From an uncultured Candidatus Micrarchaeota archaeon (GTDB lineage: Archaea > Micrarchaeota > Micrarchaeia > Norongarragalinales > Norongarragalinaceae), in assembly GCA_903893865.1 (NCBI GenBank), contig CAITNU010000060.1:1-45157 (forward strand): a stretch of DNA of 45,157 nt, given 5' to 3'. Below the pieces are notes generated by a model. That model had not been told where the DNA came from. It worked only from the letters and a program-made list of their open reading frames with translations, and ran no database searches. The translations under genes were made by a program, and so were the position numbers. Position 1 is the first letter of the stretch. Every line of letters begins with the position of its first letter. Shown here in pieces: positions 1 to 41,073 of this stretch.

Positions 1-1
1 A

Positions 2-5413: not shown

Positions 5414-5441
5414 TTAAGATTTAAGGCGAGTAACGGTTCCC

Positions 5442-6446: not shown

Positions 6447-6477
6447 CGAGGATAAAAAGAAAAGATGAATTTTACGA

Positions 6478-21428: not shown

Positions 21429-22217
21429 TCATCTCGCGAACGGGTTGAAGCGATGAAGAAACGTCAGAAGCCTGCCGACAAAGCTGCGTGAGTGCTGCGC
21501 GTGGCGAAGCGGCGAGCGCGTTATTTCCTCGGCGAGTTCCACGAATTTCAGCGCTACTTCGCTGTCCGGAAAACGCACGGTCAACGGCTGCTGCAGGCTA
21601 ATGCTCAACGGCACGACTTCGTCCTCGGGAATGCTCGACAGCACGCGGTAGTTCGTGAGCGCTTCGACTTCTTTCTCCGGCAATTCGTAAGCCTTGTGGT
21701 GAACGCGGTTGAGCACGAGTCCGAGGATTTTCACGTTGTTTTTTTCGGCGAAAGCAATGACTTTGTTCGCGCTCGTGATGCTCGGCAAGTCGGGCGTTGT
21801 AACGACGAGAACTTCGTCGCAGTTGGTTATTACTTCCTGAACGTACTCCAAAACGCTTGGCGGCGAATCAATCATTACGAACTCGTACGCTTCAAGATCG
21901 CGCAGCAAACCCTTGAAGTTTTGAATGGGAACGCGGTAACTCGGTTTCAGCGACGCGGGCAGGATTTTAAGCGAGCTTTGCGGGTGGTCTATTACCGCGT
22001 CGTCCAACGCGATTTTGTTTCCCAAGACGTCTTGAAAGCCGACGTGCATCGACGCGAAGCCGACGTGCAGCCCAACGCTGGGATTCTGCACGTCCGAATC
22101 AATGAGAATCGTCTTTATTCCTTCTCGCGCGAGAAGTATGCCGAGGTTTACGGCTGTGACGGTTTTGCCTACGCCGCCTTTTCCCGATACTACGCCGATG
22201 ACTCGGTTGCGCTTCAT
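21429..22217 (-). CDS. minD: MinD/ParA-family P-loop ATPase (archaeal MinD type)
   Basis: Deviant Walker A GVVSGKGGVGKT, Walker B-like FVMIDSPP. 262 aa. No CxxC, so not Mrp/NBP35-type. The C-terminal FVGRLLTFLHRFNPFAR is potentially an amphipathic helix. Confidence 0.88.
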   Translation of the reverse strand: MKRNRVIGVVSGKGGVGKTVTAVNLGILLAREGIKTILIDSDVQNPSVGLHVGFASMHVGFQDVLGNKIALDDAVIDHPQSSLKILPASLKPSYRVPIQNFKGLLRDLEAYEFVMIDSPPSVLEYVQEVITNCDEVLVVTTPDLPSITSANKVIAFAEKNNVKILGLVLNRVHHKAYELPEKEVEALTNYRVLSSIPEDEVVPLSISLQQPLTVRFPDSEVALKFVELAEEITRSPLRHAQHSRSFVGRLLTFLHRFNPFAR

Positions 22218-22390: not shown

Positions 22391-24208
22391 TCACGGTTTT
22401 TCGGTTTTCTCGTCGCCGAAAACTATGCGGCGCAGCGAGTTCGCATAAAGCACCCGGTCCTTGTTGTAAAACCTCGTTTCGCTCCTCGCCGAACGCCGCC
22501 AGTAAACCACAGCGATGAGCGCGATAAGCGCGAGTAGCGCGACGATGAGCCCGAGCGTAACGCCGTTCAAAGTGAACGTTATCGGAATAATCATCAACGA
22601 CATGGTTGTAGAAACCTCCTCACTCATCGCCGAAACAACCGCGCGCGCCGAGTAACCGCCCGCCGCTGCGTCCGCGTTCGCGGTTACTTCGAAATCGAAT
22701 TGCTGCGTCGTGTGCGGCGCTAGCACCACGTTGCTTATCGTGCGCGGGTCTGCAGTGAATTCAGGCGACAAAGCGAGGGAAGCAGTAACCTGCATCGGCG
22801 CTAGCCCGCCGTAGAAAACAGAGAAAGACGCCGAGCCTTTGCTTCCGGGCGAAAGCGTGGGCAAACGGAAGTCGGTAATCGTCACGAGGTCAGCCAACTG
22901 CATTTTGCGGGAAGTCGTCACCTGCTTCGTCGTCCACGCTCCGTAAACCGAGTAATCGTCGCTGAGAGTCTTGAGTTGGTACGTTACAGAGCGTTTGCCT
23001 TCTGGTTCGAGCTGGAGGAAACGCCAAGCGAGAGTCAACGGTTCGTCAGACAAGTAGCTCCCTATGGAGTCTTGAAACAAGACGTCGTTTTCGGTTGCCG
23101 CGAGAGGCGAAGGAACCGCGTCGACGACGTCGACTACGTCGAGAGTCCGCGTAATCGACGGGTTGCGCACGCTCAAAACAATGTTAGTTGTCTTCGCTGC
23201 AGTGTCGAGGCTAATGCGTCGAAGCACTATCGGGTTCTCGTAATTTGCTGGGTACGCTTTAACTCGCAGGAAAAAGTATTCAGTAGTGATGTCCGCGCCG
23301 GTCAAGTCGTCTACTACGCTCACGCGCACGACGTAATCACCAGGCGTCGCGTCCGCGGAAATCCACAGCGCGAAGTCGATTGAACTCGCGGCGGACGGCT
23401 GCAAAAAAATTTTTTTAGGCGTCACCTGCGGCGTGCCCTTCGGCAACCCGGCGAAGCGCAACGTCGCCGCGACCGGCTCGCTCCCGTCGTTCTGGAAGTG
23501 CAGAGTCAGCAGTGCGGCTTCGCCAGCCAAAACTTCCTGGAGCACGGTTTTTTTGGAGAAGGAAACAACGCCGATAATCGGCCGCACGTGAGGCGGAATC
23601 GTAGTCGGCCCACCCGGTTTTACGGGCGCGGGGCTCGCCAGCGGCGTGGGCGACGCGGCGCCGCCGCCTCCGCCTCCTTGCGGCGTCGGAGTGGGCGTCG
23701 GAGTCGGGGTAGGCGTCGGCGTATAGTTTCCCACGATAGAAAACGAGGCGGTGAACGCGTTCGTGTGATTCGCTCCGCCGCCGTAAACGCCGGTAGCGTT
23801 CACTAAATAGTTTCCTTCGGGAAAGCCAGCGCTGTTCCACGTCGTCGTCAGCGTTACTATCGAGCCTGGCGTGACGTTCGCGGTAGTGTAATTAAATACG
23901 TAGACTTCATCGCCGGTGGCGTTCGTTATGGATGCGTTCAGATCGAGCGCGTCCTCTAAATTTCCCCTATTTTCGACTGTCACGGAAAAATCCGCAGTAG
24001 TTCCCGCGTGAATGGCGTTAGGCGTGATAGTGAACGCGGTCAGCGTGAGGTTCGACAATCCTTCGACGCTAATGGTTGCCGCGGAAGGCGCGTCTCCTGC
24101 CGCGGAGCCAGATAAAACTAAGACGAAAGCTATTGGCAGCATTATCAGCAAAGCTGGATTCGAACGATAACTCAAGCGCAAGCGTGGAAGCAACGCGATG
24201 GGAGTCAT
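22391..24208 (-). CDS. surface protein with CARDB/NEW3-like beta-sandwich domains, TP-repeat linker and C-terminal TM anchor
   Basis: The ORF is open to GTG 24220. ATG 24208 lies about 26 nt downstream of TTTAAATA. Signal/TM LLIMLPIAFVLVLSGSAAG. FSVTVENRGNLEDALDLNASI is CARDB-like. Linker is (TP)7 followed by QGGGGGG. C-terminal helix is GVTLGLIVALLALIALIAVVYWRR plus a ~45-aa cytoplasmic tail. Confidence 0.85.
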   Translation of the reverse strand: MTPIALLPRLRLSYRSNPALLIMLPIAFVLVLSGSAAGDAPSAATISVEGLSNLTLTAFTITPNAIHAGTTADFSVTVENRGNLEDALDLNASITNATGDEVYVFNYTTANVTPGSIVTLTTTWNSAGFPEGNYLVNATGVYGGGANHTNAFTASFSIVGNYTPTPTPTPTPTPTPQGGGGGGAASPTPLASPAPVKPGGPTTIPPHVRPIIGVVSFSKKTVLQEVLAGEAALLTLHFQNDGSEPVAATLRFAGLPKGTPQVTPKKIFLQPSAASSIDFALWISADATPGDYVVRVSVVDDLTGADITTEYFFLRVKAYPANYENPIVLRRISLDTAAKTTNIVLSVRNPSITRTLDVVDVVDAVPSPLAATENDVLFQDSIGSYLSDEPLTLAWRFLQLEPEGKRSVTYQLKTLSDDYSVYGAWTTKQVTTSRKMQLADLVTITDFRLPTLSPGSKGSASFSVFYGGLAPMQVTASLALSPEFTADPRTISNVVLAPHTTQQFDFEVTANADAAAGGYSARAVVSAMSEEVSTTMSLMIIPITFTLNGVTLGLIVALLALIALIAVVYWRRSARSETRFYNKDRVLYANSLRRIVFGDEKTEKP

Positions 24209-24230
24209 GTCATAAAACACGTGCGCCAGG

Positions 24231-24340: not shown

Positions 24341-25066
24341 TCACTTCTTGCGTTTCTTGGCGAAGACGAAAAAGTAAGCGAGCAAAACAATGACGAGCGC
24401 CACGAGCGCTATCGTCGAAAGCACCCAAGCGTCGAGCGGAGGCAACTGAAATCCGTTGTTTTCAACCGGTTTCTCGGAATACTCCTTCGTGACTACGCGC
24501 ACTTCGTAAATGAACTCGCGCACTTGCTTTACGGAAATAGGTCCCGTCGAACCCACGTCGAACCAGCCTGCAACGGCAGAAACGCGGAGCTTGTACGTGC
24601 TCCACAACGGCGCGTCTGCGGGCGCAGTCAAGCGAATCGTGACGACTTGCGCTGGAACGAATCCTTCAACGCCGCCCATGGTCACGTACTCCACGCCTTC
24701 AGGAACGCTTTCAGGTTTTTGTTTCGGGAGCGTGCTTCGCGGCGTGACTTTCGCCACCAAGTTTTCCTGCGTTTCGACGACGATGCCGGAAATGTTGTAA
24801 GAAGCGTTGTGCACGGCAGGAATTAGTTCCGCTGTAAAGCCGTTCGGAATTTCGGATAAGGCGAGCGAAACGTGCGTGTCGCGGTTGCCGTTCACGTTGA
24901 AGAAGTAAAGCTTTGCTTCAGCGGTTTTTCCCGGCTCTACTGCGATGAACTTTTCTGCCTGCATCGTCCCGAAATTGTATTCGCCGCCTTCAGCGCGCAA
25001 CAACGGCGAAAAAAGGCTCGCAAAAGCTAGCAGCGCGATGACGCTAAAAGTAATCCTGTCAGTCAT
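24341..25066 (-). CDS. surface protein with signal peptide and C-terminal TM anchor plus KKRKK tail, function unknown
   Basis: The ORF track extends to 25174, but that extension overlaps the upstream stop and runs through a T-tract terminator. ATG 25066 gives MTDRITFSVIALLAFASLFSPLLRAEG, a classic signal peptide. The C-terminus is WVLSTIALVALVIVLLAYFFVFAKKRKK. Confidence 0.75.
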   Translation of the reverse strand: MTDRITFSVIALLAFASLFSPLLRAEGGEYNFGTMQAEKFIAVEPGKTAEAKLYFFNVNGNRDTHVSLALSEIPNGFTAELIPAVHNASYNISGIVVETQENLVAKVTPRSTLPKQKPESVPEGVEYVTMGGVEGFVPAQVVTIRLTAPADAPLWSTYKLRVSAVAGWFDVGSTGPISVKQVREFIYEVRVVTKEYSEKPVENNGFQLPPLDAWVLSTIALVALVIVLLAYFFVFAKKRKK

Positions 25067-25160: not shown

Positions 25161-25715
25161 TTAGCCGACGTCAAGGAACTTGATGTAAATCGAGCCCGTG
25201 TAAGTGCCTTTAGGCAAATCAGCGGGAATCGTCACGTTGAAATACATGTTCCTGTCTTCCGCGCTTCCGACCGGCGCGGCAATGCTCACCCAGTCAGTGT
25301 AGTTTGAGCTGGAGCAGGCGCCCGATGTGAACGCCGCTAGGAAAGAGGTGAGGCACGAGCCGGAGGTTCCTGAGTTGTTCGTGTAAGTGATGTTTTGCTG
25401 ACCGAATATTACTGAACCGTTCGCAAAATTCGTGCTGTTCACTGAAATCGTGACAACGGTGTTCGTTGCGGTATTAATGGTCATTTCACATTGCTGCGTG
25501 TCCGAACGCGTTCCATTGTTTGTTCCAGGCGAGAAGCCAGTTCCAAGATTTATAGAAGAACAGTTGATTGTAGTGTCGACTACTCCGGTTACGGTCAGCG
25601 ACGCGCTGCTAGCGTTGTCCGCGGCTGCTAATGAAACCAAGCTGTTTTGATTAAAACTGAAAGCTAAAGCGAACACTACGGCAGCCAAAACCAAAAACCA
25701 CTTTGAGTTAATCAT
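25161..25715 (-). CDS. small N-terminally anchored or secreted protein, stand-alone paralogue of the giant protein's C-terminal domain
   Basis: The ORF track starts at TTG 25742. ATG 25715 has GGAGG about 10 nt upstream and gives MINSKWFLVLAAVVFALAFSF.... The mature part aligns with residues ~3458-3601 of the 3601-aa protein (TINCS.[IL]NLGTGF[ST]PGT.NGTRSDTQQC, NNSG..GSCLT, SGAC, K.TYTG.IY.K; four conserved Cys). Confidence 0.8.
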   Translation of the reverse strand: MINSKWFLVLAAVVFALAFSFNQNSLVSLAAADNASSASLTVTGVVDTTINCSSINLGTGFSPGTNNGTRSDTQQCEMTINTATNTVVTISVNSTNFANGSVIFGQQNITYTNNSGTSGSCLTSFLAAFTSGACSSSNYTDWVSIAAPVGSAEDRNMYFNVTIPADLPKGTYTGSIYIKFLDVG

Positions 25716-25830
25716 CCCTGATCCGCCTCCTCTAAAACTCAAAACCGGAATTCACCGCCAAAACACTCACCGCGGCTATTCAAGCCAAGCGGTTTATCGT
25801 GTTATTATGCGTTATTATTTAAGGCTTTTT

Positions 25831-25840
25831 TATTTATAAA
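25831..25840 (-). promoter_or_regulatory. strong TATA box (TTTATAAATA on the minus strand) upstream of the small paralogue gene
   Basis: Located about 115 nt upstream of ATG 25715, in the 198-nt spacer after the giant gene. This implies an independent promoter with a ~90-nt leader carrying the GGAGG site. Confidence 0.4.
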
Positions 25841-25913
25841 CTGGTTTTTTTCGGTTGCTTCCGAATTTTCCGATTTTAGTCGCCTGCCAACGCGCGGCTT
25901 ACCGCGTTTTTTT

Positions 25914-28900
25914 CTAGTGCTTCACCGCTTTGACGTAAATTGTGCCGGTGTAAGTCTTCTTCAACTGGTTTTGCGGCACGTTTACGAAGAAGAAAACGTC
26001 GCGGTAAACTGCCGATACCGGTTTAGGGATGTTCACCCAGTTCGTGTAGTTCACTAGGGTTCCAATCTGGCAAGCGCCGGACTTGAAGAAAGGAGACAAT
26101 TCGGTTAGACAAGAACCAACTGCGCCCGAGTTGTTGGAAACCGTTATGTTAGCGACTTTAAGCACGCCTCCTGCGCCCGATAAGTCGCTGCCGTTCAACG
26201 ATAAATCCACTGCCACGTTCGTGTTGCTTGAAATCGTCACCTGGCATTGCTGCGTGTCAGAACGCGTTCCGTTCGCGGTGCCAGGCGTGAAGCCGGTTCC
26301 GAGATTCAAGGCGGAACAATTGATGGTCATGTCTATGATTTCCACGTGGGATATCGTGAAGTAGTAGTAAGTCAAGTTGCTGCCCCAATGGCCAACCGTA
26401 TCGTTTACGTAGACGGTGAAATTCGCTTCGCCGTCAGGCTGGCTCGTCACGTTGAAGTAACAATTCGTTCCGCTGCGAGTCATAGTCAAATTAACGTTCG
26501 TACTATTCGGGTAAACGTAGTTGAGCAAGCAAGTGTCGGGATTCGTTTCAGTGAAAGTCACGTTGATATAGGAATAATTGTAGTCTTGGGTGGAACCGTT
26601 GAGGGGAGTGGGATTAACGTAGATTATGCTCGCGGGCGCAGTCTTGTCTATCGTGATGTTCCGCGTTTCAGTCTTGTTTTGGTTCCCAGATTGGTCGACA
26701 GCGAAACCGTAGTAATCGTAAACTCCGTCGCTCAAGCTCGTAAAATTGTTTTCGAGACGGTACGCGCTGTTGTTGAAGGAAGCGTTGATTTCCTGTTCTG
26801 AAAGCGAGCGGTTCCAAACCCGAATTTCATCCAACGCGCCAGTAAACCAATTGTCACCCTTACCAAAATACATATAGTCGCCAGAATCGCTTATCGCACC
26901 ACTGGTTTCTTTACTCACGTCCGAAACGCCGTTCAAGTAAATCGACAAGTAAGTGGAATTGAATACGGCGGCAACATGATACCACGTGTCGTTGGAAAGC
27001 GCGGTGGCGCCAGTCACATCCTGTGAAGGCAAATCCGGCACTTGAAAATAAATTTTGCGTTCAGAATTGAGACGAACGTCCCAGTCACCAGCCCGATAAA
27101 CCAAATCCTCGTCTCCGTACGAGCCGCGGTAAGGATACTTAACCCAAAAATCTATTGAGAGCGCGCTGCTGATGCTGTTTAAACTATCAGAATTAGGAAC
27201 TTGAATTTCGTCATCGTTTCCGTCGAATTGAGCGCCGCAGCCGAACCTGCCAGCACAAGTCCAGTTTTCGCTTCCTTCAGGGTAAAGCGTTCCGTTGTTG
27301 CCCCATGTGCTGTTATCGTACGCCGTAGCTCCAGAGCCTTCCTCGAAACTCCAGTAACCGATTAGCGAGCGGTTCCAATCAACGAACGCACCGCCAGGAT
27401 TCGCGTCGGTCACACTGACGTTCACGTAAGCGTAATCGTAGTTCGTCAAGTTATTGTTCGGCGGCGTAGGGTCAACGAACGCGGGCGTCGGCGGAGTGAC
27501 GTCAGCCAGCTTGCTGAAAGATTGGAACTCGTCAAATTCTTTGAAACCATAATCTCCGCAATCACCACCACCTGACCGAGTATCAAAAAGAATTTTCAAG
27601 TATTTTCCCGTTGCGGCCGTAAACGAGCAATTATACCAAGCTAAGCCGCTGCCGATTAACTCGCAACTGCCTAAACTGTCGCCCCAATTCGCTGGATCGT
27701 TGGAAACATAGATTTCTGAAACCGCGCATACATTGCTGTCCTTGTCAGGCGCAGTGTAAATTTGGAGTTTAGAGTGCGTGTACAGCGTGCAATACTCGTA
27801 AGCAATCCAGTGCTGTTCTTCGGCAGAGTGTCCCCACCGGGTACTGGTGTCGTTGTCGATGGTGTTCGTTGCAGGGCTATCACCTTCTTCGCCGCACTTA
27901 TCGTAAACCGCGTGCGGCGTAACCCAGTTCCAGAGAGACGTGAAAGTCAATGCTTGTTGTTCGCTTACGCCCCAGTTTCCCGCGCTGTCGTTAACCCACA
28001 TTCTATAAACGTAATCCCCGCTGTCGGTCAGCGTCGCGTTGTAGTAACAATTCGTTCCAACTCGCGTCGCCGAATAATTCGAGTCGTTGATTTCAAGCAA
28101 GCAGGAATCCGGGTTCGATTCGGTGAAAGTGACGTTAACGTAAAAATAGTCTTGCGTTAAATTAGAGTTGTTGACGGGAGTAGGACCGACGTAAACGATG
28201 TTCGACGGCGGAGTCACATCAATAGTAAACCCGTACTGCGACAAATTACTACCCCAATTACCAGCACTATCGTTAACGTAAACAGTAAAATTCGCCTGCC
28301 CATCACCCTGCGTCGTAACATTAAAATAGCAATACGCAGCCACACCCGCCGCCTTCGTCATCGTTAGGTTGACGTTCGTGCTGTTCGGATAAACGTAATT
28401 CAACAAGCAAGTGTCGGGATTCGATGCCGTGAACGTAGCATTAACGTACGAGTAATTATAATTGCGCCAAGAATTGTTTGCAGGCGTTGGCGAAACGTAA
28501 GCGATACTCGACGGCGGCGAGATTATAGTGAGCGTCCTGTTGTTCGACCACGCTACGTTGCCGGCAGAATCATCGCATCTCGCGCCCCATATGAATGTTG
28601 CTTGAGTTAAGCCGGATATCGAAGCATTCCACCACGTATCGTTTAATAAACCGCCACTGCTCTGCTCGCTTCCAAAACCACTTGTTGGTTCAGGAGAAAC
28701 AAACTTACGAATGAATGTCCAGTCTATTTTTTGAGTGCCGGTTCCCGCCTTTTGATACCAATGATGTAGGTTATAACTTCCTGTAGGAACATTACTTGTT
28801 ACTACTGATTCACTTCCATCATCCAGAGTATGTGAGACTGTCGTTGAATTTCTTCTTACTTCAATAACGTGATAAGCTCCAGCAAAAGCGGTCACTTGTG

Positions 28901-31900
28901 TCTGTGAATTAGCACCATTCGTAAATGCTCGTATATAATAGTTATATGGAGAACCATAATATCTAATTACCGTGGCGCCATAATCGCCAGTTGTTGGACT
29001 GTTATATAATACTTCTCCAGCTCCTTTATTCCACCAACCAAAACCTTGCTCGAGATAACTTCCTCCTTCATTATACCAGTTTACACTTGACCTTAAAGCG
29101 TAATCGTATCCGAGAGTTGTTGTTCTAGCGGCAGAAGCAGCTGAAGTGCCGTTTGGGTCTAATGTAAGAATTCCTCCAGAAACTGAACCAAGAGTTAAAC
29201 TCCAACCAGTTGAATCGTCCCAAGTAGTAGAACCATCAACACCAGTATTAGTTATATTGCTTGCACTTGAAGCGCCGGCGTTGCCGTAATACATGTAGAA
29301 AGTGTAGTTGGTCGTCGTAATGTTTTGGTCTACTTCAACCCAGACTATAGCCCAGTTGCCGTCGCTCTTGTTCTCAAGCCAGTAATCTAATTGAGTGTTT
29401 TCAGAGCCGTTATAAAACCTTAAATCAGAAAAATCACTTTTCATATCAGAATCATAAGTTACGTTTAATTTTACTTGATAATTCGTTCCCGTGTAACCGC
29501 TTGAGACAGAAACATTTATTGGTTTCTTCCGGCTAGAATTAGTTGCTTTCACTTGCCAAGTTCCGGTGTCATTTGCCCATATTTGTAAAGTGCTTAGGCC
29601 AACGTTATCAGAACATTTCGAGTCAAACACTACCGTTGAGCTTGACGAATTATAATTGTCAACGGGATTCGTTCCGAGCGAAACTGTTGGTGCAGTCGTA
29701 TCTATCGTGATAGCCCGCGTTTCCGTCTTGTTCTGGTTCCCAGCAGCATCAACCGCAAAACCATAGTAACTGTAATTACCATCACTCAACCCAGTGAAAT
29801 TGTTTTCCAAACGGTACAAACCGTTGTTGTAGGACGCGTTGATTTCCTGTTCCGAAAGCGTGCGATTCCAAATCCTAACTTCATCAATCACACCACTAAA
29901 CGCAGTAACCGAATAAGCGCCTTCATACCGCCCAATAGTAACGTTGTCAGAAATCGATTGAATGCTATTACAAACCTCTCCAGCTACGCTGTCGCTGTAA
30001 TTAGTCCAATTCATCAAGTTTCCGTTAACCCAAATACTAACGTTTCCCGTACCAGCATTAAACACTCCAACCAAATGAGTCCAAGTATTAGCCGTCAAAA
30101 CAGTCGGAGAAGTAGCGTCACACCGAGTATAAGAAGGACTATTCTTTTCTATGACCGCCATTGCCGGTTTTCCGTCACTACCAATTTCAATACGATACGC
30201 TTCAACGTCTCCACCAGCGCCATTCACTTTCCCAACCACCAAACCTCGACCGCTATCCGCCGGGTAAACCCAAGCCTCGAGAGTCAAATTACCAGTAATA
30301 CTCAAACTAGAAGCGTTAAGACAATTCACGAAATCATCATTATTATCGAAACTCAAACCGTAACCAAATTTACCGCTCGAGTTGTAAGTCGGGCCATTAG
30401 TCAACGCACCATTATTCCCATAACTCGAATTATCAAAAGCAGTCGTCCCACTGCCTTCACTGAAAGCCCAGTAACCCACAAGCGAGCGATTCCAATCAAT
30501 GAATGCTGCACCCGGATTCAAGTCAGTAACGCTAACATTCACGTAAGCATACTTGTTTTTCGTCAAATTACTGTCAGGCGGAGTCGGGCCAACGAACGCC
30601 GGAACAGGCTTCGTCATGTCAATGTAGAACTTGTACGTCGAGAGATTGCTGCCCCAATTCCCAGCTGAATCGTTGACGTAAACCGTGAAATTCGCCTGCC
30701 CATCACCCTGAGTCGTAACGTTGAAATAACAATACGTACCGGTTCCAGCTGCTTTAGTCATCGTTAAATTCACGTTCGTCGAATTCGGGTAAACGTAGTT
30801 AAGCAAACACGAATCCGGATTTGATTCAGTGAAAGTCGCGTTAACGTACGAGTAATTATAGTTTTGGTAAGAATTGTTTGACGGCGTGGGACTAACGTAA
30901 GCAATACTCGCAGGCGCAGTCGTGTCGACGTAAAACTTGTAAGTCGTCACGTTCGAACCCCAATTGCCGGCAGTATCGTTCACGTAAACCGTGAAATTCG
31001 GTTGACCGTCACCCTGAGTCGTAACGTTTTTGTAGCAGTACGCGGCTGCGCCCGCTGCTTTCGTCATCGTTAAATTCACGTTCGTGCTGTTCGGATAAAC
31101 GTAGTTTAACAGGCACGAATCGGGATTCGTTTCAGTGAACGTAGTATTGATGTAAGCGTAAGCGTAACTCTGGTAAGAATTGTTTGAAGGCGAAGGACTA
31201 ACGTAAGCAATGCTCGCGGGCTTCGTCACGTCAATCCTGAAACTATAAGTCGACACGTTCGAACCCCAATTTCCCGCCGAATCGTTCACGTAAACCGTGA
31301 AATTCGGTTGCCCATCACCCTGCGTCGTAACGTTGAAATAACAATACGCGGCTGCGCCCGCTGCTTTCGTCATCGTCAAGTTAACGTTCGTTGAATTCGC
31401 GTAACGATAATTCAACAAGCAAGTGTCTGGATTCGTTTCAGTGAAACTCGCGTTAACGTAAGAATAATTATAGTTTTGAAGCGAATTGTTTGACGGAGTC
31501 GGACTAACGTAAACAATACTCGCAGGAGCAGTCCGATCAATATAAAACTTGTACGTCGACACGTTGCTACCCCAATTTCCAGCAGTATCGTTCACGTAAA
31601 CCGTGAAATTCGCCTGCCCATCACCCTGAGTAGTAACGTTGAAGTAGCAGTACGCGGCTGCGCCCGCAGCTTTCGTCATCGTCAAGTTAACGTTCGTTGA
31701 ATTCGGGTAAACGTAATTCAACAAACACGAGTCAGGATTAGTTTCGGTGAACGTGGCGTTAATGTACGAGTAATTATAATTCCTGAAAGACGCGTTCGCC
31801 GGACTCGGAGTAACATAAACAATACTCGCAGGCGCAGTCTTATCAATAGTAAAACCATACTGCGACAAATTCGAACCCCAATTACCTGCCGAATCATTCA

Positions 31901-34900
31901 CGTAAACAGTAAAATTCGCGTAACCAGCAGGCTGATCACTAACATTAAAATAACAATACGGCGAAGAACCCGTAACCTTCGTCATCGTCAAATTCACGCT
32001 CGAAGAATTCGAATAAACATAATTCAACAAACACGAATCAGGATTAGCTTCCGTAAAAGTCACATTAACGTACGAATAATTATAATTCCTGAAAGACGCG
32101 TTCGCCGGACTCGGAGTAACATAAACAATACTCGCCGGCTTTGTCGTGTCGATGGTAAACCCGTATTGTGACAAGTTACTACCCAAATTACCGGGAGTAT
32201 CATTCACGTAAACCGTAAAATTCGCGTAACCATTACCTTGAGTAGTAACGTTGAAGTAACAATTCGTTCCGCTCGCCTTTGCTGTCAAATTCACGTTCGT
32301 CGAATTCGGGTAAACGTAGCTGATTATGCACGAGTCGCTTGGATTCGCTTCCGTGAAAGTAACGTTAATGTAGGCGTAAGCGTAATTCCGGAAAGAACCG
32401 TTGAGCGGCGTCGGAGTAACGTAAGCGATGCTTGATGGCGCAGTCTTATCAATAGTAAAACCATACTGCGACAAATTCGAACCCCATCTGCCTTGCGAGT
32501 CATTAACGTAAACCGTGAAATTCGCGTAACCAGCAGGCTGGTCAGTAACGTTAAAATAACAATAACGCGCACCGCCCGTTCCAACCACTAGCGTCATCGT
32601 TAAATTCACGTTCGTCGAATTCGGGTAAACGTAGTTCAACAAGCAAGCGCTGGGACTCGCTTCCGTGAACGTCACGTTAATGTAAGAATAATTATAGTTC
32701 TGAATAGAACCATTCAACGGACTCGGAGTAACATAAACAATACTCGCAGGAGCAGTCGTGTCGACGGTAACAGTGTAGTTCACGTTGCTCCTGTTGCTTA
32801 ATGACACGTCGCCGTTGTCCCAACACTCGACGTTACACAAGTAAATGCCTTCCGCTGCGAACGTGTAGTTGATGCCGTTCACGGTATTGTTCGCGATGCT
32901 GCTTGTGCCGTTCCAATTCGTTTGATTTAAGCTCGTGCCGTTGCTGTAAAACAAAAGCGTCGTGCAGTTCTTGAAGCCCGAGTTGTCTATTGGCGTGAAA
33001 GTGAAGTTGACGTTTGCCGAGGCGCTGGTCGTGCCGTTGGACGGCGCGCTCAAGCTCACGTTCGGCGCGGTGTTCGCGTAACTCGCGAAAATCGCGCTGT
33101 AGTAGGATGGAGTCATGTCGGTGGTGTTGATGCCAGTCCAGTAAATGGCGTGGTAGTGCGTGGCGGAGGAATAATTGGTTGTTGCCCCTGAGGCCTTGTA
33201 GTTCACGCCTGCCGTAGCGCTGGCGGCGGTTTTGTCGGTCAGGGCAGTGTGCGTGTGGCTAGCGTTGCTGGTAGTAATTAAGGTGCCGTAAGCGCTCGTC
33301 GCGTACAAAAACTTTTGGTAAAAGTCGTCCGCTGATGAAGCGGAGCGCGAAGTCCATTCGACGGGCGGAGTCGCGTTCCACAACGCGTACATTCCGTTGG
33401 GCACGGGGCGAGTGTCGTTCAGGTAAGCAATAATAATTTTCGACGTAACTGGCACCGCTTCGATTGCAGTCGTCGTTCTGGAGGCTGAAGTGTTCGCCTC
33501 GTGCGTGTGCACGCCATTAGCAACAGATGCCGTGGTGGTGGAGGTCAAACCCGTGGCGTTGGAGGTAGTGGTCCACGAAATATTCCACGTGTGCGTGTGA
33601 GTCCAACTCCCGCCAGTCACTTGAGCCGTCGCGTTGCCGCGAATGTAGTAGCCGTCCGCGGCGCTGAACCGCGTCCAGTTCGCGGGCAAACTAGTCGTGT
33701 TGAAGAACGCGATTACGCCTGAGGGAAGCGTTGCGGGAAGCCCGCTCGTGTTACAGCGAATTACGAGGAAGTCGTAGTAAGGCGGAAAATTCGAGGCGGT
33801 CGTGTTAGCGGTGTACATTACCTTGTGCGCGTGAGTCGCGGGCGCGCCAGTGTTCGTAGTGACTGTAGAAAGAGTTCCGGCTGAAGCCGTACCCAGGAAG
33901 GCCTGGTAATTGTGTGCGTGGTAATCGCTTCCGCCGCTCCCGCCGTAAGTCGCGTCAGGCACGATGAATTTCCGGTAAAACGGGTCGGTAGCGTAACAAG
34001 AAATGCACGTCCACCCGCTCGGAACGTTAGCAAGAGTGTTGTTAAACAACAAAATCATGTGCGCGTTGCTGGCGTCGTTGTAAGCGAAAACGCTTTGTCC
34101 GCCGAAATCGAAGCGCAGAACGTGCCGCCGCGCTTTCAACACCTTGCTGTTTTCGCTGGCAGTCTCGTTGCACGAGTAATTCGGAACGACAACGCTGCAC
34201 TCGTTTTCCGCGCAGTTTGCGCCGCGCCACTCGTACGGCACTAGCCGGTCCCCGCAACGGATTTCGAGGAAGCGCAGGTCGTAAAGCGTTTCGTTCTCGC
34301 TTGAATCGCTCCAACGCGTGTAATTCTCGGTGTAATTCAAGTCGCGCGTTGCGGTAATCGTTAAATCCGCCGCTCCGTTCGTCTCGAAATTAACCGTCCA
34401 GTTGCCGTAAAGCTGCGGGTGCGAGTGAACGTTCAAAATCGTTATGTTGATGCCGAAAGACTGGTTGTCCGTTAATTCGGGTATCACCCACGATATTTCG
34501 TGCACGAAACCGTTCGAGTCGCCGTTCGTGGCTTTGAAAACAAGTTTTTTCACGAGAAAACCGTTCTCGCTGATTTCGCGCAACTCATCGTCCGTCAAGT
34601 TCAAGCCGCTCAAGTTTTGGCTCGCCGATAAAACCCACGATAATTCGATGTCGTCGAGATTGTTTACTTCAACAGGAAGTGAAGCGTAAACACTCACGTT
34701 CTCGTAATGCATTGGCGCGGTTACGACGACGCGCTTGGAACCGAAACCCGTTTGTTCCTCGCTTGCTTGCGGAGCGCCCGTATAGTATTCGACTTCGAGT
34801 TCGCTGAAATCGCCTCTGCCGCCTCGAACGCGCAAACCCTTCGCGCCGCGCACAGCGCTTTTGACGCCTGTTTCAGTAGCGTTTTCGGCGCCGTTCTCGG

Positions 34901-36719
34901 CACCGTTTTCGACGAGTTTCTCGGCATTGTTTTCGAGCGCGACTTCGGAAACGCTTAAATCTGTCCAGTCGAGAGTTTGGGACGCTTGAGCTGTTTCCGT
35001 TTCAACGCTTTCCGCTCCAGCAAATTGCACTATTTGCGCAGCCGCAACAGCGCCAACTCCTTCAGTGCTGTTTGCTTCAACAGTTGCTTCAGCCGCGCTG
35101 GCAGGCGTTTCAGGCGTGGTGTTTGCAATCGCTTCAGTAGCGGTCGCAAGCGCAGGCGCTTCGGGTGCAACGGCATATGCTGGAACCGCGTAATCCGCGT
35201 TAGCCAGCGTCGCGTTTTGCGCTTCGGGCGGCAACGCCACGACGAAATCGCGCGCGCGTTCTCTCAAAACGATTTTCTTCGTCCACTTGACTGGCTTGCC
35301 AACAGCCGCGTTGGCTTGCTCGGTTGTTTCTGAAGCGACTTCGACGTTCGCGTTGTATTCAGGCGTAGGCAAAGGCGAGAGCGAAGGAGTCGCGGTAGGC
35401 TCCGAAGCGTTGACACGAATAGAGCGCGACTCGTTAGCGCAATCAGCGCCCGGCAAGCTGCCGTAAAAAGCGACGACGTTGATGTCGTAAACACCTTCTG
35501 CAGCATAAGAGTGGTTTCCAGTAGATTCAGTCGTCCACGCCCACGGCGGCTCGGAATCAGAAAGCGTCAGTTCACTCGAGTTCGAGCCGTCACCCCAAAA
35601 AACGATGACGTGGTAATTCTTTTGATTTTGGTCGAGGAATGGTTCGAGAACTCCGTAAACGGATAATTCGTCGCCTACGACTACCTCGCTTTCGTCTTGC
35701 TGGCTAAAAACGCTTAATCCAGTAACGTTTAATCCGGTTTTCTTGCAGCCGAACTCGTTTGGCGCGATCGGCGAAGGCACCGCTTCAGGCGAAGGTGAAG
35801 ACGAAGTTTCCGGCGAAGCTTCGAGTGAAACGCTTGGCTCGGGCGTTGGTTCGAGAGTGACGACTTCAAACGACGGTTGCGGGCACGCGGCGGGCGTAGG
35901 ACAAGCGTTAGACGATGGAGTCGGCGTGGCGTTTGCTTGACTAATCGAGAAAACGACGCGCGTTGCGCCGTAGTAATCGTTTTTGCTTGCTTCAACGAGA
36001 GCTTCGTAATCTCCTTGCGTTGAAGCGTAAAAGCGTTGCTCGAAAACGCCTTCATCGCTCCCCGCTGTTGAGTAAAAACCGTTTTCGGAACCCGTAATCG
36101 TGATGTTGACTTCGGCGAACGGAACGCTTTGTTGAGCGAATGAAACGCTTCCGGCGACAGCGTATTCTCCCGGCGTTTCTTCAGGCTTCGTCAGCGCTGC
36201 ATCGACGACGAGATTTCCTTCATGGTAATAGAACGCTTTTTGCGTCGAACCAGTCTTGTTTTCTGCGTTCGCAGTAACGCTCAGCAAATAAACTCCGGCT
36301 GGCGCTTCGCTTGGCAGCGTCACGCTTGAATCAAGCGCGCTTCCAGCAGTTAAAGTAAAATTGTATTCGTACTGTGCGCCGCGCATTTCGATGAAATAAG
36401 CGATTTCGCTCGACTCGTTCTCGAGTCCCGAGACGCGCGCTGAAAAACTAACGGGCTCGCCCATGAATTCATGGTATTCGACCGAAAGCGTTACGCCCAG
36501 CGCGCCAGGCGGGTTTTCGAAGAATAAGGCGCCGCCGCCCTGCTGCCCGCCGCTAAGCGGCGAAAGCAAGTCAGGGCGGCGCGCGAGCGCGGCGTGAGGC
36601 GCGAGAGCAAAAAATTCGCAAGCCGAAAAGCCGACTGCGAACAGCAAGGCTATTGCTAGCATCGCTTTCGCTGTCTTCCGTTCGGGTTTGAGCGCTTTCA
36701 AGCGCGTTACTGCTCCCAC
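25914..36719 (-). CDS. giant (3601 aa) secreted mosaic surface protein / putative adhesin
   Basis: Uninterrupted 10.8-kb ORF with a GTG start. N-terminal signal (KTAKAMLAIALLFAVGFSAC). Domains recognised by eye:
- PKD-like domain (VFWGDGS...GNHSYAAEGVYDINVVAF)
- Acidic Ala/Glu/Thr low-complexity region
- Three tail-collar-like units, each with two HxH motifs
- At least 10 copies of a ~100-aa Ig-like repeat
- Two LamG/ConA-like modules (WNRSL[VI]GYW.F.EGSG... [IL]DE[VI]R[IV]WNR[ST]LSEQEINAS)
- DUF2341 (DLRFYNGSENTQLDYWLE...WVEV...YMYYGN) plus a ConA-like jelly roll ending IDWTFIRKFVSPEP
- F5/8-type-C (discoidin)-like domain (TIDNDTSTRWGHS..QHWIAYEY)
- Cys-containing C-terminal domain
There is no C-terminal TM segment. 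N-x-S/T sequon density is extremely high. Confidence 0.95.
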   Translation of the reverse strand: MGAVTRLKALKPERKTAKAMLAIALLFAVGFSACEFFALAPHAALARRPDLLSPLSGGQQGGGALFFENPPGALGVTLSVEYHEFMGEPVSFSARVSGLENESSEIAYFIEMRGAQYEYNFTLTAGSALDSSVTLPSEAPAGVYLLSVTANAENKTGSTQKAFYYHEGNLVVDAALTKPEETPGEYAVAGSVSFAQQSVPFAEVNITITGSENGFYSTAGSDEGVFEQRFYASTQGDYEALVEASKNDYYGATRVVFSISQANATPTPSSNACPTPAACPQPSFEVVTLEPTPEPSVSLEASPETSSSPSPEAVPSPIAPNEFGCKKTGLNVTGLSVFSQQDESEVVVGDELSVYGVLEPFLDQNQKNYHVIVFWGDGSNSSELTLSDSEPPWAWTTESTGNHSYAAEGVYDINVVAFYGSLPGADCANESRSIRVNASEPTATPSLSPLPTPEYNANVEVASETTEQANAAVGKPVKWTKKIVLRERARDFVVALPPEAQNATLANADYAVPAYAVAPEAPALATATEAIANTTPETPASAAEATVEANSTEGVGAVAAAQIVQFAGAESVETETAQASQTLDWTDLSVSEVALENNAEKLVENGAENGAENATETGVKSAVRGAKGLRVRGGRGDFSELEVEYYTGAPQASEEQTGFGSKRVVVTAPMHYENVSVYASLPVEVNNLDDIELSWVLSASQNLSGLNLTDDELREISENGFLVKKLVFKATNGDSNGFVHEISWVIPELTDNQSFGINITILNVHSHPQLYGNWTVNFETNGAADLTITATRDLNYTENYTRWSDSSENETLYDLRFLEIRCGDRLVPYEWRGANCAENECSVVVPNYSCNETASENSKVLKARRHVLRFDFGGQSVFAYNDASNAHMILLFNNTLANVPSGWTCISCYATDPFYRKFIVPDATYGGSGGSDYHAHNYQAFLGTASAGTLSTVTTNTGAPATHAHKVMYTANTTASNFPPYYDFLVIRCNTSGLPATLPSGVIAFFNTTSLPANWTRFSAADGYYIRGNATAQVTGGSWTHTHTWNISWTTTSNATGLTSTTTASVANGVHTHEANTSASRTTTAIEAVPVTSKIIIAYLNDTRPVPNGMYALWNATPPVEWTSRSASSADDFYQKFLYATSAYGTLITTSNASHTHTALTDKTAASATAGVNYKASGATTNYSSATHYHAIYWTGINTTDMTPSYYSAIFASYANTAPNVSLSAPSNGTTSASANVNFTFTPIDNSGFKNCTTLLFYSNGTSLNQTNWNGTSSIANNTVNGINYTFAAEGIYLCNVECWDNGDVSLSNRSNVNYTVTVDTTAPASIVYVTPSPLNGSIQNYNYSYINVTFTEASPSACLLNYVYPNSTNVNLTMTLVVGTGGARYCYFNVTDQPAGYANFTVYVNDSQGRWGSNLSQYGFTIDKTAPSSIAYVTPTPLNGSFRNYAYAYINVTFTEANPSDSCIISYVYPNSTNVNLTAKASGTNCYFNVTTQGNGYANFTVYVNDTPGNLGSNLSQYGFTIDTTKPASIVYVTPSPANASFRNYNYSYVNVTFTEANPDSCLLNYVYSNSSSVNLTMTKVTGSSPYCYFNVSDQPAGYANFTVYVNDSAGNWGSNLSQYGFTIDKTAPASIVYVTPSPANASFRNYNYSYINATFTETNPDSCLLNYVYPNSTNVNLTMTKAAGAAAYCYFNVTTQGDGQANFTVYVNDTAGNWGSNVSTYKFYIDRTAPASIVYVSPTPSNNSLQNYNYSYVNASFTETNPDTCLLNYRYANSTNVNLTMTKAAGAAAYCYFNVTTQGDGQPNFTVYVNDSAGNWGSNVSTYSFRIDVTKPASIAYVSPSPSNNSYQSYAYAYINTTFTETNPDSCLLNYVYPNSTNVNLTMTKAAGAAAYCYKNVTTQGDGQPNFTVYVNDTAGNWGSNVTTYKFYVDTTAPASIAYVSPTPSNNSYQNYNYSYVNATFTESNPDSCLLNYVYPNSTNVNLTMTKAAGTGTYCYFNVTTQGDGQANFTVYVNDSAGNWGSNLSTYKFYIDMTKPVPAFVGPTPPDSNLTKNKYAYVNVSVTDLNPGAAFIDWNRSLVGYWAFSEGSGTTAFDNSSYGNNGALTNGPTYNSSGKFGYGLSFDNNDDFVNCLNASSLSITGNLTLEAWVYPADSGRGLVVGKVNGAGGDVEAYRIEIGSDGKPAMAVIEKNSPSYTRCDATSPTVLTANTWTHLVGVFNAGTGNVSIWVNGNLMNWTNYSDSVAGEVCNSIQSISDNVTIGRYEGAYSVTAFSGVIDEVRIWNRTLSEQEINASYNNGLYRLENNFTGLSDGNYSYYGFAVDAAGNQNKTETRAITIDTTAPTVSLGTNPVDNYNSSSSTVVFDSKCSDNVGLSTLQIWANDTGTWQVKATNSSRKKPINVSVSSGYTGTNYQVKLNVTYDSDMKSDFSDLRFYNGSENTQLDYWLENKSDGNWAIVWVEVDQNITTTNYTFYMYYGNAGASSASNITNTGVDGSTTWDDSTGWSLTLGSVSGGILTLDPNGTSAASAARTTTLGYDYALRSSVNWYNEGGSYLEQGFGWWNKGAGEVLYNSPTTGDYGATVIRYYGSPYNYYIRAFTNGANSQTQVTAFAGAYHVIEVRRNSTTVSHTLDDGSESVVTSNVPTGSYNLHHWYQKAGTGTQKIDWTFIRKFVSPEPTSGFGSEQSSGGLLNDTWWNASISGLTQATFIWGARCDDSAGNVAWSNNRTLTIISPPSSIAYVSPTPANNSWRNYNYSYVNATFTASNPDTCLLNYVYPNSTNVNLTMTKAAGVAAYCYFNVTTQGDGQANFTVYVNDSAGNWGSNLSQYGFTIDVTPPSNIVYVGPTPVNNSNLTQDYFYVNVTFTESNPDSCLLEINDSNYSATRVGTNCYYNATLTDSGDYVYRMWVNDSAGNWGVSEQQALTFTSLWNWVTPHAVYDKCGEEGDSPATNTIDNDTSTRWGHSAEEQHWIAYEYCTLYTHSKLQIYTAPDKDSNVCAVSEIYVSNDPANWGDSLGSCELIGSGLAWYNCSFTAATGKYLKILFDTRSGGGDCGDYGFKEFDEFQSFSKLADVTPPTPAFVDPTPPNNNLTNYDYAYVNVSVTDANPGGAFVDWNRSLIGYWSFEEGSGATAYDNSTWGNNGTLYPEGSENWTCAGRFGCGAQFDGNDDEIQVPNSDSLNSISSALSIDFWVKYPYRGSYGDEDLVYRAGDWDVRLNSERKIYFQVPDLPSQDVTGATALSNDTWYHVAAVFNSTYLSIYLNGVSDVSKETSGAISDSGDYMYFGKGDNWFTGALDEIRVWNRSLSEQEINASFNNSAYRLENNFTSLSDGVYDYYGFAVDQSGNQNKTETRNITIDKTAPASIIYVNPTPLNGSTQDYNYSYINVTFTETNPDTCLLNYVYPNSTNVNLTMTRSGTNCYFNVTSQPDGEANFTVYVNDTVGHWGSNLTYYYFTISHVEIIDMTINCSALNLGTGFTPGTANGTRSDTQQCQVTISSNTNVAVDLSLNGSDLSGAGGVLKVANITVSNNSGAVGSCLTELSPFFKSGACQIGTLVNYTNWVNIPKPVSAVYRDVFFFVNVPQNQLKKTYTGTIYVKAVKH
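30612..32756 (-). repeat. seven tandem in-frame ~300-312-bp coding repeats (residues 1322-2036 of the giant protein)
   Basis: Unit consensus: T[AK]PASI[VA]YV[ST]P[ST]P.N.S..NY.Y[SA]Y[IV]N.[TS]FTE.NPDSCLLNYVYPNSTNVNLTMTKAAG...YCYFNVT.QGDGQ.NFTVYVND[ST]AGNWGSN[LV]S.Y.F.ID. Units share identical nucleotide strings longer than 30 nt (e.g. TTTCGTCATCGTCAAGTTAACGTTCGTTGAATTCG at ~31367 and ~31667). More diverged copies lie at 28212..28523, 27930..28211 and 26346..26645. Confidence 0.9.
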
Positions 36720-38162: not shown

Positions 38163-39254
38163 TTAAAAGCTCATGCTGCCGATGCCTTTCCACGCCTCGC
38201 TTTGCGCGGTTGCGACGGCGCCCTTCACGCGCGACTCGTGCCCGAGCACTTGCGGCGAATTCACGCCCGTAACGATGCTCGTGACGATGATTTTGTCGCC
38301 GAGTTCGGGGTTGATGCGCGCGCCCCACTTGACGTAAGCATGCGGGTCGAACGAATCAGTTATTCCTTCCCCGATCTTGACTGCTTCGCCTAGCGTTAGG
38401 CTTGGCCCGCCGTTGATGAGCACCAACGCGCCTTTAGCGCCGGCGTAATCAACGTCGAGCAGCGGGTGTTCGAGAGTCGTATCAATCGCGCTCTGCACTT
38501 TGTTCGTGCCGCTTCCCTCGCCGATGCTTATCATCGCGATTCCCGCGCGCTCCATTATCATTCGCAAATCAGCGAAATCGATGTTCATCAAGCTCGGCAG
38601 CATCACGGTGTCTGCGATTCCTTTTACGCTGCGCGCGACGAGAGTGTCCGCGACCGCGAACGCCTGGTTCATTGGCAGGTTCGGAACGTACGAGACGAGG
38701 CGGTTGTTGTCGATTATTACGACTGTGTCGCACGACTCGCGCAACGCGTCGAGTCCCCAATCCGCTTTTTCTAGGCGGGCGCGCTCGAGCGCGAACGGGA
38801 ACGTTACCATGGCGACGACTATCGCGCCGTTCTTTTTCGCGACGTCGGCGATTACGGGCGCGGCGCCGGTGCCTGTTCCGCCTCCCATTCCAGCCGTAAT
38901 GAAAACGAGTTCGGAATCCTTCAAGAGTTCTGCGAACTTGTCGCGCGCCTGTTCAGCGGCTTTCATCCCGATTTCCGGGAATCCGCCTGCGCCCAAGCCT
39001 TTAGTCAGTTGCGCGCCGATGAGCAGTTTCTTGCCTGCTTCGCAAACTTGCAAGTGTTTTTGGTCCGTGTTTACAGCGATTGTTTCCGCGCTCGCTAGGC
39101 CCATCTTGTGCAAGCGCGTGACGGTATTCGTGCCTCCGCCTCCGACGCCTACGACGGTTATCTTCACTTTCGAGGGCGTAAAGTTTTTGCCGACTACTTC
39201 CGGCAAGCTGTTAGTGCCCCCGTACTTGAGGGCGTCCGAAACCAACGAATTCAC
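38163..39254 (-). CDS. ftsZ: cell division GTPase FtsZ (paralogue b)
   Basis: Tubulin/FtsZ signature GGGTGTGAAPVIA, N-terminal GVGGGGTNTV, and T7-loop region DNNRLVSYVPNLPMNQAF. GTG start with AGGAGG upstream. Confidence 0.95.
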   Translation of the reverse strand: MNSLVSDALKYGGTNSLPEVVGKNFTPSKVKITVVGVGGGGTNTVTRLHKMGLASAETIAVNTDQKHLQVCEAGKKLLIGAQLTKGLGAGGFPEIGMKAAEQARDKFAELLKDSELVFITAGMGGGTGTGAAPVIADVAKKNGAIVVAMVTFPFALERARLEKADWGLDALRESCDTVVIIDNNRLVSYVPNLPMNQAFAVADTLVARSVKGIADTVMLPSLMNIDFADLRMIMERAGIAMISIGEGSGTNKVQSAIDTTLEHPLLDVDYAGAKGALVLINGGPSLTLGEAVKIGEGITDSFDPHAYVKWGARINPELGDKIIVTSIVTGVNSPQVLGHESRVKGAVATAQSEAWKGIGSMSF

Positions 39255-40694: not shown

Positions 40695-41073
40695 TTGCAC
40701 CGCCTCTTGATTTTTTGTTTTTTAATCGCTCGTTTTTCTTTTTTCAGTAAAAAACGGCGCAATAACCACTCGCAAAGGATTTAAAAGCTTTTCTAATATA
40801 ACGAGATTAGCGGAACGATGGTTCCAGCGAAAAAAAATCGGGAAAAACGAGCAAAATCGGTTGAAATCGAAAAGCATATGTTTAAATATGGGGTTTTCCT
40901 ACCGTTTCCAGCAGCATCCACGCGGCTGAAAAGAGTGGGAAAAAGCAAAAAAAACGAAAAAACGACGTGGCCGCGTTTGAAAAGCAAAAAAAGCAAAGCG
41001 AAAAACGCGAAATCGATTGAAGACGGGGATTGAGAGGGACTGAAAGAAAATTCTTTTAGGGGGGAGTTGCCGT

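Follow-up and report, generated by a model that had tools for sequence, protein, structure and literature searches.

Among the adhesive fibres of archaea, Mth60 fimbriae have been known since 2008, and their structure and assembly remain unsolved. They are non-type-IV, Sec-dependent fibres of 5 nm, made of a 15-16 kDa glycoprotein fimbrin (PMC10370314, PMC4187195, PMC11821415, PMC12337348), and are micrometre-long (PMC10370314, PMC11821415). The Mth60 precursor of 176 amino acids (aa) is cut at Ala33|Ala34 to yield 143 mature residues (PMC11821415, PMC4187195), forms fimbriae and self-assembles in vitro (PMC10370314), and AlphaFold models of Mth60 have donor strands exchanged (PMC10370314, PMC11821415). 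The fibre has been described from only a few species (PMC11821415), and the roles of mth58, mth59 and mth61 of its operon are stated as unknown (PMC10370314). For haloarchaeal tafi, a co-encoded set of tip (TafC), shaft (TafA/E) and single-transmembrane anchor (TafF) has been proposed (PMC12337348, PMC11821415). Here, a stretch of 45,157 nt from an uncultured Candidatus Micrarchaeota archaeon (contig CAITNU010000060.1; hereafter the window) is analysed, which encodes on its minus strand a giant secreted protein of 3601 aa (25914..36719) and, immediately downstream, a small secreted protein of 184 aa (25161..25715). With slightly better than even confidence, we hold that the two belong to a conserved archaeal operon for a non-type-IV fimbria of the Mth60 type, in which the small protein is the polymerising shaft subunit and the giant the tip adhesin. 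Mth60-type and donor-strand-style fibres are known, and no earlier description of a giant protein with a C-terminal fimbrin domain was found.

Sequence comparison establishes that the 184-aa protein is a paralogue of the giant's C-terminal domain and that both belong to one family. The original prediction, made from the DNA of the window, had proposed that this domain is duplicated as the small protein, and pairwise alignment bears this out: in a BLASTP comparison of the small protein with the last 168 residues of the giant, 71 of 138 positions are identical (51%, with 70% positives and E 1e-46), and the aligned span joins residues 45-179 of the small protein to residues ~3461-3597 of the giant. 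The giant's fimbrin-like domain (residues ~3460-3601; 25917..26342, minus strand) ends one residue before the stop codon. The four conserved cysteines, which had also been pointed out, lie at positions 52, 76, 121 and 134 of the small protein and 3468, 3492, 3537 and 3550 of the giant, with the identical spacing of 24/45/13. The claimed similarity at the nucleotide level was equally found, since a 26-nt stretch encoding NGTRSDTQQC, GGAACGCGTTCgGACACGCAGCAATG, differs by a single base between the two paralogues (approx. 25489..25514 and 26245..26270, minus strand), and the antisense open reading frames (ORFs) of both copies contain HCCVSERVP and KPVPRF. The identity of this stretch far exceeds that of the remainder of the paralogue alignment, and it may represent a gene-conversion tract. 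A third copy of the domain was not found in the window by tblastn with either copy as query, the next match having an E of at least 0.028.

The small gene is listed as an ORF with a TTG start (25161..25742, minus strand), and its likely start, judged from the sequence, is the ATG at 25715, behind a GGAGG ribosome-binding site (25726..25730, minus strand) located just within the listed ORF; the protein read from this ATG consists of a signal peptide, an extension and the fimbrin domain. The 171-nt intergenic region between the giant and small genes (25743..25913, minus strand) contains the predicted TATA-like sequence, TTTATAAATA (25831..25840, minus strand), and may hold a separate promoter for the small gene, as far as can be judged from sequence only. 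The h-region of the small protein (the hydrophobic residues 6-21) is followed by ..LAAA|DN and a mature part of ~152 aa, and the K/R-G/A prepilin motif of type IV pilins (class III) is absent. Because this segment aligns with the published Ala33|Ala34 site of Mth60 (PMC11821415), the hydrophobic N-terminus (~residues 1-32) is probably a cleaved Sec signal peptide. The earlier view that the small protein is N-terminally anchored has hence been abandoned, and so has its proposed role as a membrane-anchored dock for the giant, the candidate anchors being two other operon proteins with a C-terminal transmembrane helix. The giant itself has an N-terminal signal and no C-terminal transmembrane helix, as had been predicted, its single hydrophobic segment being the signal- or transmembrane-like residues 16-41. 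It contains at least nine Ig-like repeats of ~100 aa, two Laminin_G_3 domains, DUF2341 and a discoidin-like domain. N-glycosylation sequons number 189 in the giant and 9 in the small protein, and the sequon count is high across the whole operon.

The domain could be assigned to no Pfam or NCBIfam family, where only sub-threshold noise was obtained (PapG_N, AA9, WxLIP_PGBD). An exhaustive HMMER search over 1.84 billion representatives revealed 75 clusters forming an archaeal family, which together with three matches from other protein searches were re-scored locally, giving 78 proteins that fall into three classes. A word-indexed protein search returned three matches with the single protein and seven with the profile, and pattern scans with a 4-sequence alignment over genome and metagenome collections returned no match. 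Stand-alone secreted proteins account for 48 of the 78, mostly of 165-200 aa and up to ~210 aa with a few fragments, and the match covers the N-terminal extension in 44 of them. Large proteins of 247-3601 aa account for a further 25, in which a single domain always ends no more than six residues from the C-terminus, preceded by an unrelated linker; in 16 of these 25 the match starts at position 39-44 of the hidden Markov model (HMM), just past the extension. Tandem doubles (P0041, P0042, P0046, P0058 and P0059) make up the third class, with a signal peptide, a domain, an extension-like linker and a second domain in this order, and the linker could serve to complete the first domain in cis, as in engineered self-complemented pilins.

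The family consensus consists of a signal peptide followed by 'tAsVTVn', 'vIDvTL..i.FGsl.PG' and, towards the C-terminus, 'yfWl.iP.gQ.aGtYt..iyvkv'. The 'AxVTV' strand is among the best-conserved segments of the family, although it is located in the mature N-terminal tail. In the small protein, the motif 'tAsVTVn' corresponds to the extension SSASLTVTGVV (residues 36-46; 25578..25610, minus strand), which is a candidate donor strand. The domain of the giant has no free N-terminal extension: the YYYFTIS in front of it corresponds to the final strand of the Ig repeat before it. Large proteins of the family carry different passengers, with beta-helix, Big_3_5 and NPCBM_assoc in some members and LamG, DUF2341 and discoidin-like domains in the window, and such variation fits a plug-in attachment module.

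Mth60 was not found among the family representatives by length or by its Ala33/Ala34, and its sequence was reached by searching metagenome contigs with a published PCR primer. This revealed a Methanothermobacter-like bioreactor contig (L025) that exactly matches 11 published mth58-61 primers, and the '60' primer pair falls within a 176-aa ORF that shows the published Ala33-Ala34 and the published mature length of 143 aa. From the window protein and 37 homologues a family HMM was built, which gives Mth60 a score of 38.9 bits (E 3.7e-14, Z=1) and mature Mth60 one of 26.2 bits, compared with -1.9 on average and 9.2 at most in 2000 shuffles. Mth61, the upstream paralogue of 175 aa, scores 20.9 bits against the same HMM, and in pairwise comparison Mth60 matches the family members P0068 and P0025 at E ~1e-6. 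The aligned features of Mth60 are the ATASQTVTVTV strand, the NFGS motif and the C-terminal VPP..GTYT strand, with its SYA|AT falling on LAAA|DN of the small protein. At the level of profile comparison, the small protein is a distant Mth60-type fimbrin; the making of ~5-nm fimbriae and assembly in vitro are known for Mth60 itself only (PMC10370314).

Similarity to the Mth60 operon extends beyond the fimbrin. Shared features are the Sec signal peptide, a mature part of ~143-152 aa, the 'tAsVTVtV' strand, the '..NFGS..G' motif and the '..VPp...GTYT' strand, and both systems have N-glycosylation sequons and lack a type IV pilin signal. The gene order is likewise shared, with an upstream paralogue (Mth61 or the large protein) and the fimbrin followed by a beta-sandwich protein with a C-terminal transmembrane helix; on L025, Mth61 and Mth60 precede a 297-aa ORF whose product combines a signal peptide with two sandwich domains and a transmembrane helix at the C-terminus. 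This is a single ORF (L025 8886..9779, minus strand) across the mth59/mth58 region, and mth58 and mth59 may be one gene that is split or truncated in the reference. The published primer Res_CF8 of strain Delta H differs from L025 by a 1-nt indel, with which the protein would end at ..GATVW, within the helix. However, the Methanothermobacter upstream paralogue has 175 aa and no passenger, whereas in the window it makes up the C-terminal module of the 3601-aa protein. Furthermore, no orthology of the downstream genes could be detected, Mth59/58 giving no score against the 241-aa family HMM and only 17 bits against the CARDB-like family (both families described below), sequence identity is below pairwise detection, and the host is a DPANN archaeon rather than a pseudomurein-walled methanogen. 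The original assertion that no archaeal system of this kind has been described is thus too broad, as the Mth60 operon has the same gene logic and tafi has tip, shaft and anchor roles, but for a giant with a C-terminal fimbrin domain no description was found. Full-text searches on DPANN donor-strand filaments and Micrarchaeota giant surface adhesins yielded no description of this operon, and those on Mth60 brought up neither Mth60-type fimbrins from non-methanogens nor a fimbrin domain located C-terminally on large adhesins.

Synteny of the giant and small genes in relatives, envisaged by the original prediction, was indeed observed, as the gene order recurs in whole or part in Micrarchaeota, Archaeoglobus and Hydrothermarchaeota. 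Contig reach permitting, a large gene, a small gene, a gene for a transmembrane protein of ~225-250 aa and a gene for a CARDB-like transmembrane protein follow one another in the window, in L009, whose contig stops within the transmembrane gene, in L015 (Norongarragalina meridionalis) and in L016 (Archaeoglobus sp.). L021 contains the large gene, the small gene and the beginning of the transmembrane gene, L001 the C-terminus of the large gene followed by the small gene, and L004, L013, L014, L017 and L020 a partial operon as far as the contigs reach. In Candidatus Pyrohabitans (L010-12 and L018), the four genes are all present and the large one is in inverted orientation. In L005, insertion sequence (IS) elements lie between the large and small genes, with IS66-, IS240- and DDE_Tnp_1-type transposase genes (5165..7054) between the 1610-aa large protein and the start of the small paralogue. 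The nearest relatives of the operon proteins of the window are in metagenome-assembled genomes (MAGs) of Candidatus Micrarchaeota and Norongarragalinales, and P0021, P0028 and P0017 could be traced to short metagenome contigs only. The adjoining small protein is the one closest to the C-terminal domain of the large protein at five of six loci (51, 54, 59 and 71% identity, and 54% in L001), while proteins of the same type are less alike across lineages (~41-43% identity, window versus L009). Such within-locus likeness fits co-evolving partners, and it suggests concerted evolution, co-evolution of interaction partners or repeated capture of the fimbrin domain. An upstream gene in L006 that ends in 31 residues identical to the small protein was dropped as evidence, because the ends of this 921-bp contig are identical in 98 of 98 nt (1..98 and 781..878), the probable cause being an artefact of assembly or a perfect tandem repeat.

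The two membrane-anchored proteins of the operon are encoded directly downstream. The gene for the first, of 241 aa, extends from its probable ATG over 24341..25066 (minus strand), the listed TTG start at 25174 being probably too far upstream, and the protein has a signal peptide, a beta-sandwich of ~160 residues with NFGTMQ.. and FFNVxGNRxTH motifs, a C-terminal transmembrane helix and a KKRKK tail. Conservation in the operon is highest for this protein (38-86% identity), which matches no known family besides weak NPCBM_assoc, and the fimbrin family and the 241-aa family are unrelated in profile-profile comparison (probability 6%). Its invariant polar residues (~54-65 and 181-185, including FFNVxGNRxTH, Q181 and R183) suggest a binding or catalytic site. 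One member of this family, P0137, is labelled as from a Dehalococcoidia bacterium MAG, which could reflect mis-binning or transfer to bacteria. The AlphaFold2 model of the 241-aa protein has a predicted local distance difference test (pLDDT) score of 92.2, and its Foldseek list contains many PapD-like pilus chaperones (FimC, FaeE, SfaE, CsuC and PapD), all weak, with E 1e-3 to 4e-3 and template-modelling scores (TM-scores) of 0.3-0.4. The second protein, of 609 aa and CARDB/NPCBM_assoc-like (22391..24220, minus strand), has a signal peptide, a C-terminal transmembrane helix and a cytoplasmic tail, and wherever a related locus is long enough, an orthologue comes after the 241-aa gene. SAATISVEG (24059..24085, minus strand), a candidate donor strand that resembles SSASLTVTG of the small protein, immediately follows the signal peptide of the 609-aa protein. 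Similar segments follow the signal peptides of other CARDB-like proteins (TKATVTVTP, ASAGVTITE, TEVKVTVNE, TLASVSVTP and ASTSVEVAE), and when a position-specific scoring matrix of the extension was applied, the best 9-mer of the whole CARDB-like protein was its mature N-terminus in five of eight orthologues. These sequences suggest that the CARDB-like protein, as the putative anchor, may provide the strand for the final shaft subunit.

A model of the small protein obtained with AlphaFold2 from the 38-sequence alignment is a confident beta-sandwich (pLDDT 89.4), in which the extension stays unpaired in the monomer, as seen for residues 40-47. Apart from the GH123 beta-sandwich, the top 50 PDB matches in Foldseek are almost all subunits of donor-strand fibres, among them FimG, FimF, FimA, FimI, CfaB, CS17, Caf1, CsuA/B, CsuE, PapA and Pyrodictium CanA. 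For the pilins FimG, FimF, CfaB, Caf1, CsuA/B and PapA, E ranges from 6e-3 to 0.25 and the target-normalised TM-score from 0.27 to 0.51. Chaperone-usher pilins are thus the most frequent structural matches, yet weak ones (TM-score at most about 0.5), and PapD-like chaperones occur among the weak matches of the 241-aa protein. In chaperone-usher pili (FimH/FimG/FimA, PapG, CsuE/CsuA/B), as in the arrangement proposed here, the tip adhesin joins a receptor-binding part to a C-terminal pilin domain without donor strand, shaft subunits join an N-terminal donor strand to an acceptor domain, and the domain must end at the C-terminus. However, no Pfam Fimbrial, SCPU or usher match was obtained at E <= 0.1 except Fimbrial_CS1 at E 0.077 in one of 38 members, and an usher-like gene is absent from the operon and the neighbouring genes. 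The loosely noted likeness to SCPU/Csu pilins can hence be kept as an analogy, with Csu among the Foldseek matches, but not as membership of that family. Other differences are that there is no outer membrane here and that the assembly or anchor candidates are tethered by C-terminal transmembrane helices. Also, the 51-71% identity of the paired domains is, to our knowledge, much above that between the tip pilin domain and the shaft subunits of chaperone-usher systems.

Members of the TasA superfamily (the bundling pili of AbpA, Sulfolobus threads, CanA/CanX and tafi) likewise have secreted beta-sandwich subunits that assemble without chaperone through an N-terminal donor strand, and Pyrodictium CanA is among the Foldseek matches of the small protein. 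Neither Pfam nor a PDB sequence-profile search at E <= 10 linked the family to TasA/Peptidase_M73, AbpA, CanA or thread subunits. A signal peptidase gene is absent from the operon, and neither a SipW-like signal peptidase I nor Tat components are encoded among its neighbours, which are MinD-like ATPase, methyltransferase and FtsZ genes. The signal of the small protein is of the Sec and not of the Tat type. Furthermore, the tip protein of the tafi model donates a strand, whereas the giant has none to donate and would accept one.

A fibre assembled along the following lines would accommodate these features. The small protein would be exported by Sec, with subsequent removal of the signal peptide, and would polymerise head to tail, the SSASLTVTG strand of each subunit entering the beta-sandwich of its neighbour by donor-strand complementation. 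Because the giant carries the same domain at its C-terminus without a free donor strand, it could only accept a strand and would be placed at the distal end as the tip adhesin, with its Ig-repeat, LamG and discoidin-like parts pointing outward. At the proximal end, the 609-aa CARDB-like protein may plug the last subunit by its own strand and hold the fibre in the membrane by its transmembrane helix, and the 241-aa membrane-tethered beta-sandwich protein may be a chaperone-like assembly factor or the base. The original prediction had offered a stalk subunit with the giant as tip adhesin as one of two options, and this option is the one now favoured on account of the Mth60 homology, the stand-alone-specific strand, the synteny and the pilin-like matches, its mechanism being a matter of inference. 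What sequence comparison shows is that the two proteins are paralogues, that the family has the architecture described, that the gene order recurs and that the family is homologous, at profile level, to a fimbrin verified by experiment; from these we infer donor-strand insertion, polarity, tip position, polymerisation and anchoring.

Several observations weigh against such a fibre. Mth60 and the window protein are not significantly similar by BLASTP (E 2.2), so that their relation is a profile-level one only, and the Foldseek matches of the small protein are weak, with E 3e-3 to 0.3 and TM-scores of 0.2-0.5. Ig-like sandwiches readily match one another, and the chaperone-like matches of the 241-aa protein belong to the generic Ig fold, being mixed with PD-1 and antibody domains. 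The strand motif of the 609-aa protein in the window ranks only third within that protein and is shifted in register, and the CARDB-like protein of L013 has no motif resembling the N-terminal extension. In L020, the small gene is directly preceded by an unrelated gene and not by a large gene of the family. Mth60-type fimbriae are not known to carry a tip protein.

The same observations can be read as a non-filamentous anchoring complex, in which the shared domain is a pairing module and a single copy of the small protein, or a small number of copies, connects the giant with both membrane-anchored beta-sandwich proteins without formation of a long fibre. Such a complex resembles the dock of the original prediction, except that the anchor would come from the transmembrane proteins and not from the N-terminus of the small protein. 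We regard this complex as rather unlikely, even though the giant has no anchor of its own, the two partners with transmembrane anchors are always co-encoded, the 51-71% within-locus similarity of the domains would suit a specific heterodimer and none of the computed results shows the length of a polymer. What argues for the polymerising shaft is that the homologue Mth60 makes micrometre-long fimbriae and self-assembles (PMC10370314, PMC11821415), and that the stand-alone subunits combine an extension with an acceptor domain, as is characteristic of a repeating unit. The apparent promoter signals of the small gene point in the same direction, as they might be expected of a subunit made in excess. 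Taken together, the strand specific to stand-alone proteins, the placing of the domain at the C-terminus, the tandem doubles and the homology to Mth60 fit the rivals less well than they fit a shaft subunit.

This applies also to the view, which we consider quite improbable, that the domain is a generic carbohydrate- or cell-wall-binding beta-sandwich, with the giant retained via S-layer glycans or surface sugars and the small protein acting as a free lectin or competitor. Glyco_hydro_123_N_2 of Pfam indeed weakly matches 12 of 38 members (best E 9.5e-5), GH123 appears in the PDB profile search (E 0.0026) and among the top Foldseek matches, and the operon is, by sequon count, heavily glycosylated. 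However, the GH123 matches are all below the Pfam cut-offs and concern mainly the last two strands, the window protein scoring 13.5 bits against a gathering cut-off of 27; a match above threshold to a generic carbohydrate-binding module, which the original prediction had considered, was not obtained. We know of no demonstrated sugar-binding role for the GH123 N-domain, and sugar binding leaves unexplained the N-terminal strand largely confined to stand-alone proteins, the strict C-terminal position, the tandem doubles and the Mth60 homology. That the two copies merely reflect a recent local duplication or an assembly artefact and are functionally uncoupled is barely credible. Their adjacency, the near-identical 26-nt stretch and the artefact-like identical 98-nt ends of the related contig L006 would be in keeping with it, but it is refuted by synteny, the same pair and architecture being found in independent assemblies of different phyla; moreover, the copies have diverged to 51% identity while keeping the cysteine spacing and the motifs, and the 45-kb contig has ordinary archaeal genes on either side.

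If the Mth60-type fimbria is taken as correct, the locus provides a concrete assembly model for an archaeal appendage with tip, shaft, anchor and assembly factor. It suggests that the fimbrin family is widespread, occurring in Micrarchaeota, Archaeoglobus and Hydrothermarchaeota besides the methanogen of its discovery, that a conserved set of membrane-anchored partners accompanies the fimbrin and that the fimbrin domain serves as a C-terminal mount for large adhesins. The locus also points to a candidate organelle for attachment to the host in a DPANN archaeon, a group whose cell-cell attachment is little understood in molecular terms. A bolder extension, put forward tentatively and with considerable doubt, is that several archaeal phyla, including DPANN symbionts, possess an usher-less fibre resembling chaperone-usher pili, with an unbroken chain of donor strands from a CARDB-like terminator anchored by a transmembrane helix through an Mth60-type shaft to an exchangeable tip, and that in Micrarchaeota a giant-tipped fimbria catches the host cell. 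Any passenger of up to 3601 aa could then be mounted through a C-terminal fimbrin domain without donor strand, and roles would be assigned to mth61, mth59 and mth58 of the Mth60 operon.

Beyond the operon, a MinD/ParA-type ATPase of 262 aa is encoded downstream (21429..22217, minus strand), and homologues are found in L013 (3112..3894), L014 (3765..4421), L015 (5732..6523), L017 (2391..3098) and L010 (4397..5137). In loci of Micrarchaeota and Hydrothermarchaeota, this gene follows the CARDB-like gene directly or almost so, and in Pyrohabitans (L010/L018) it is found ~3 kb off, adjoining a response regulator. This ATPase could position or regulate the fibre, or its place could be mere conserved gene order. 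The proteins of the window include an archaeal MinD, RtcB, an S-layer-like protein and two FtsZ, the genes of these FtsZ paralogues lying side by side (38163..39254 and 39633..40700, minus strand). Besides the giant, two large surface-type proteins of the window, a right-handed beta-helix protein of 1170 aa (1901..5413, plus strand) and an S_layer_C protein of 931 aa (42230..45025, minus strand), are without fimbrin domain.

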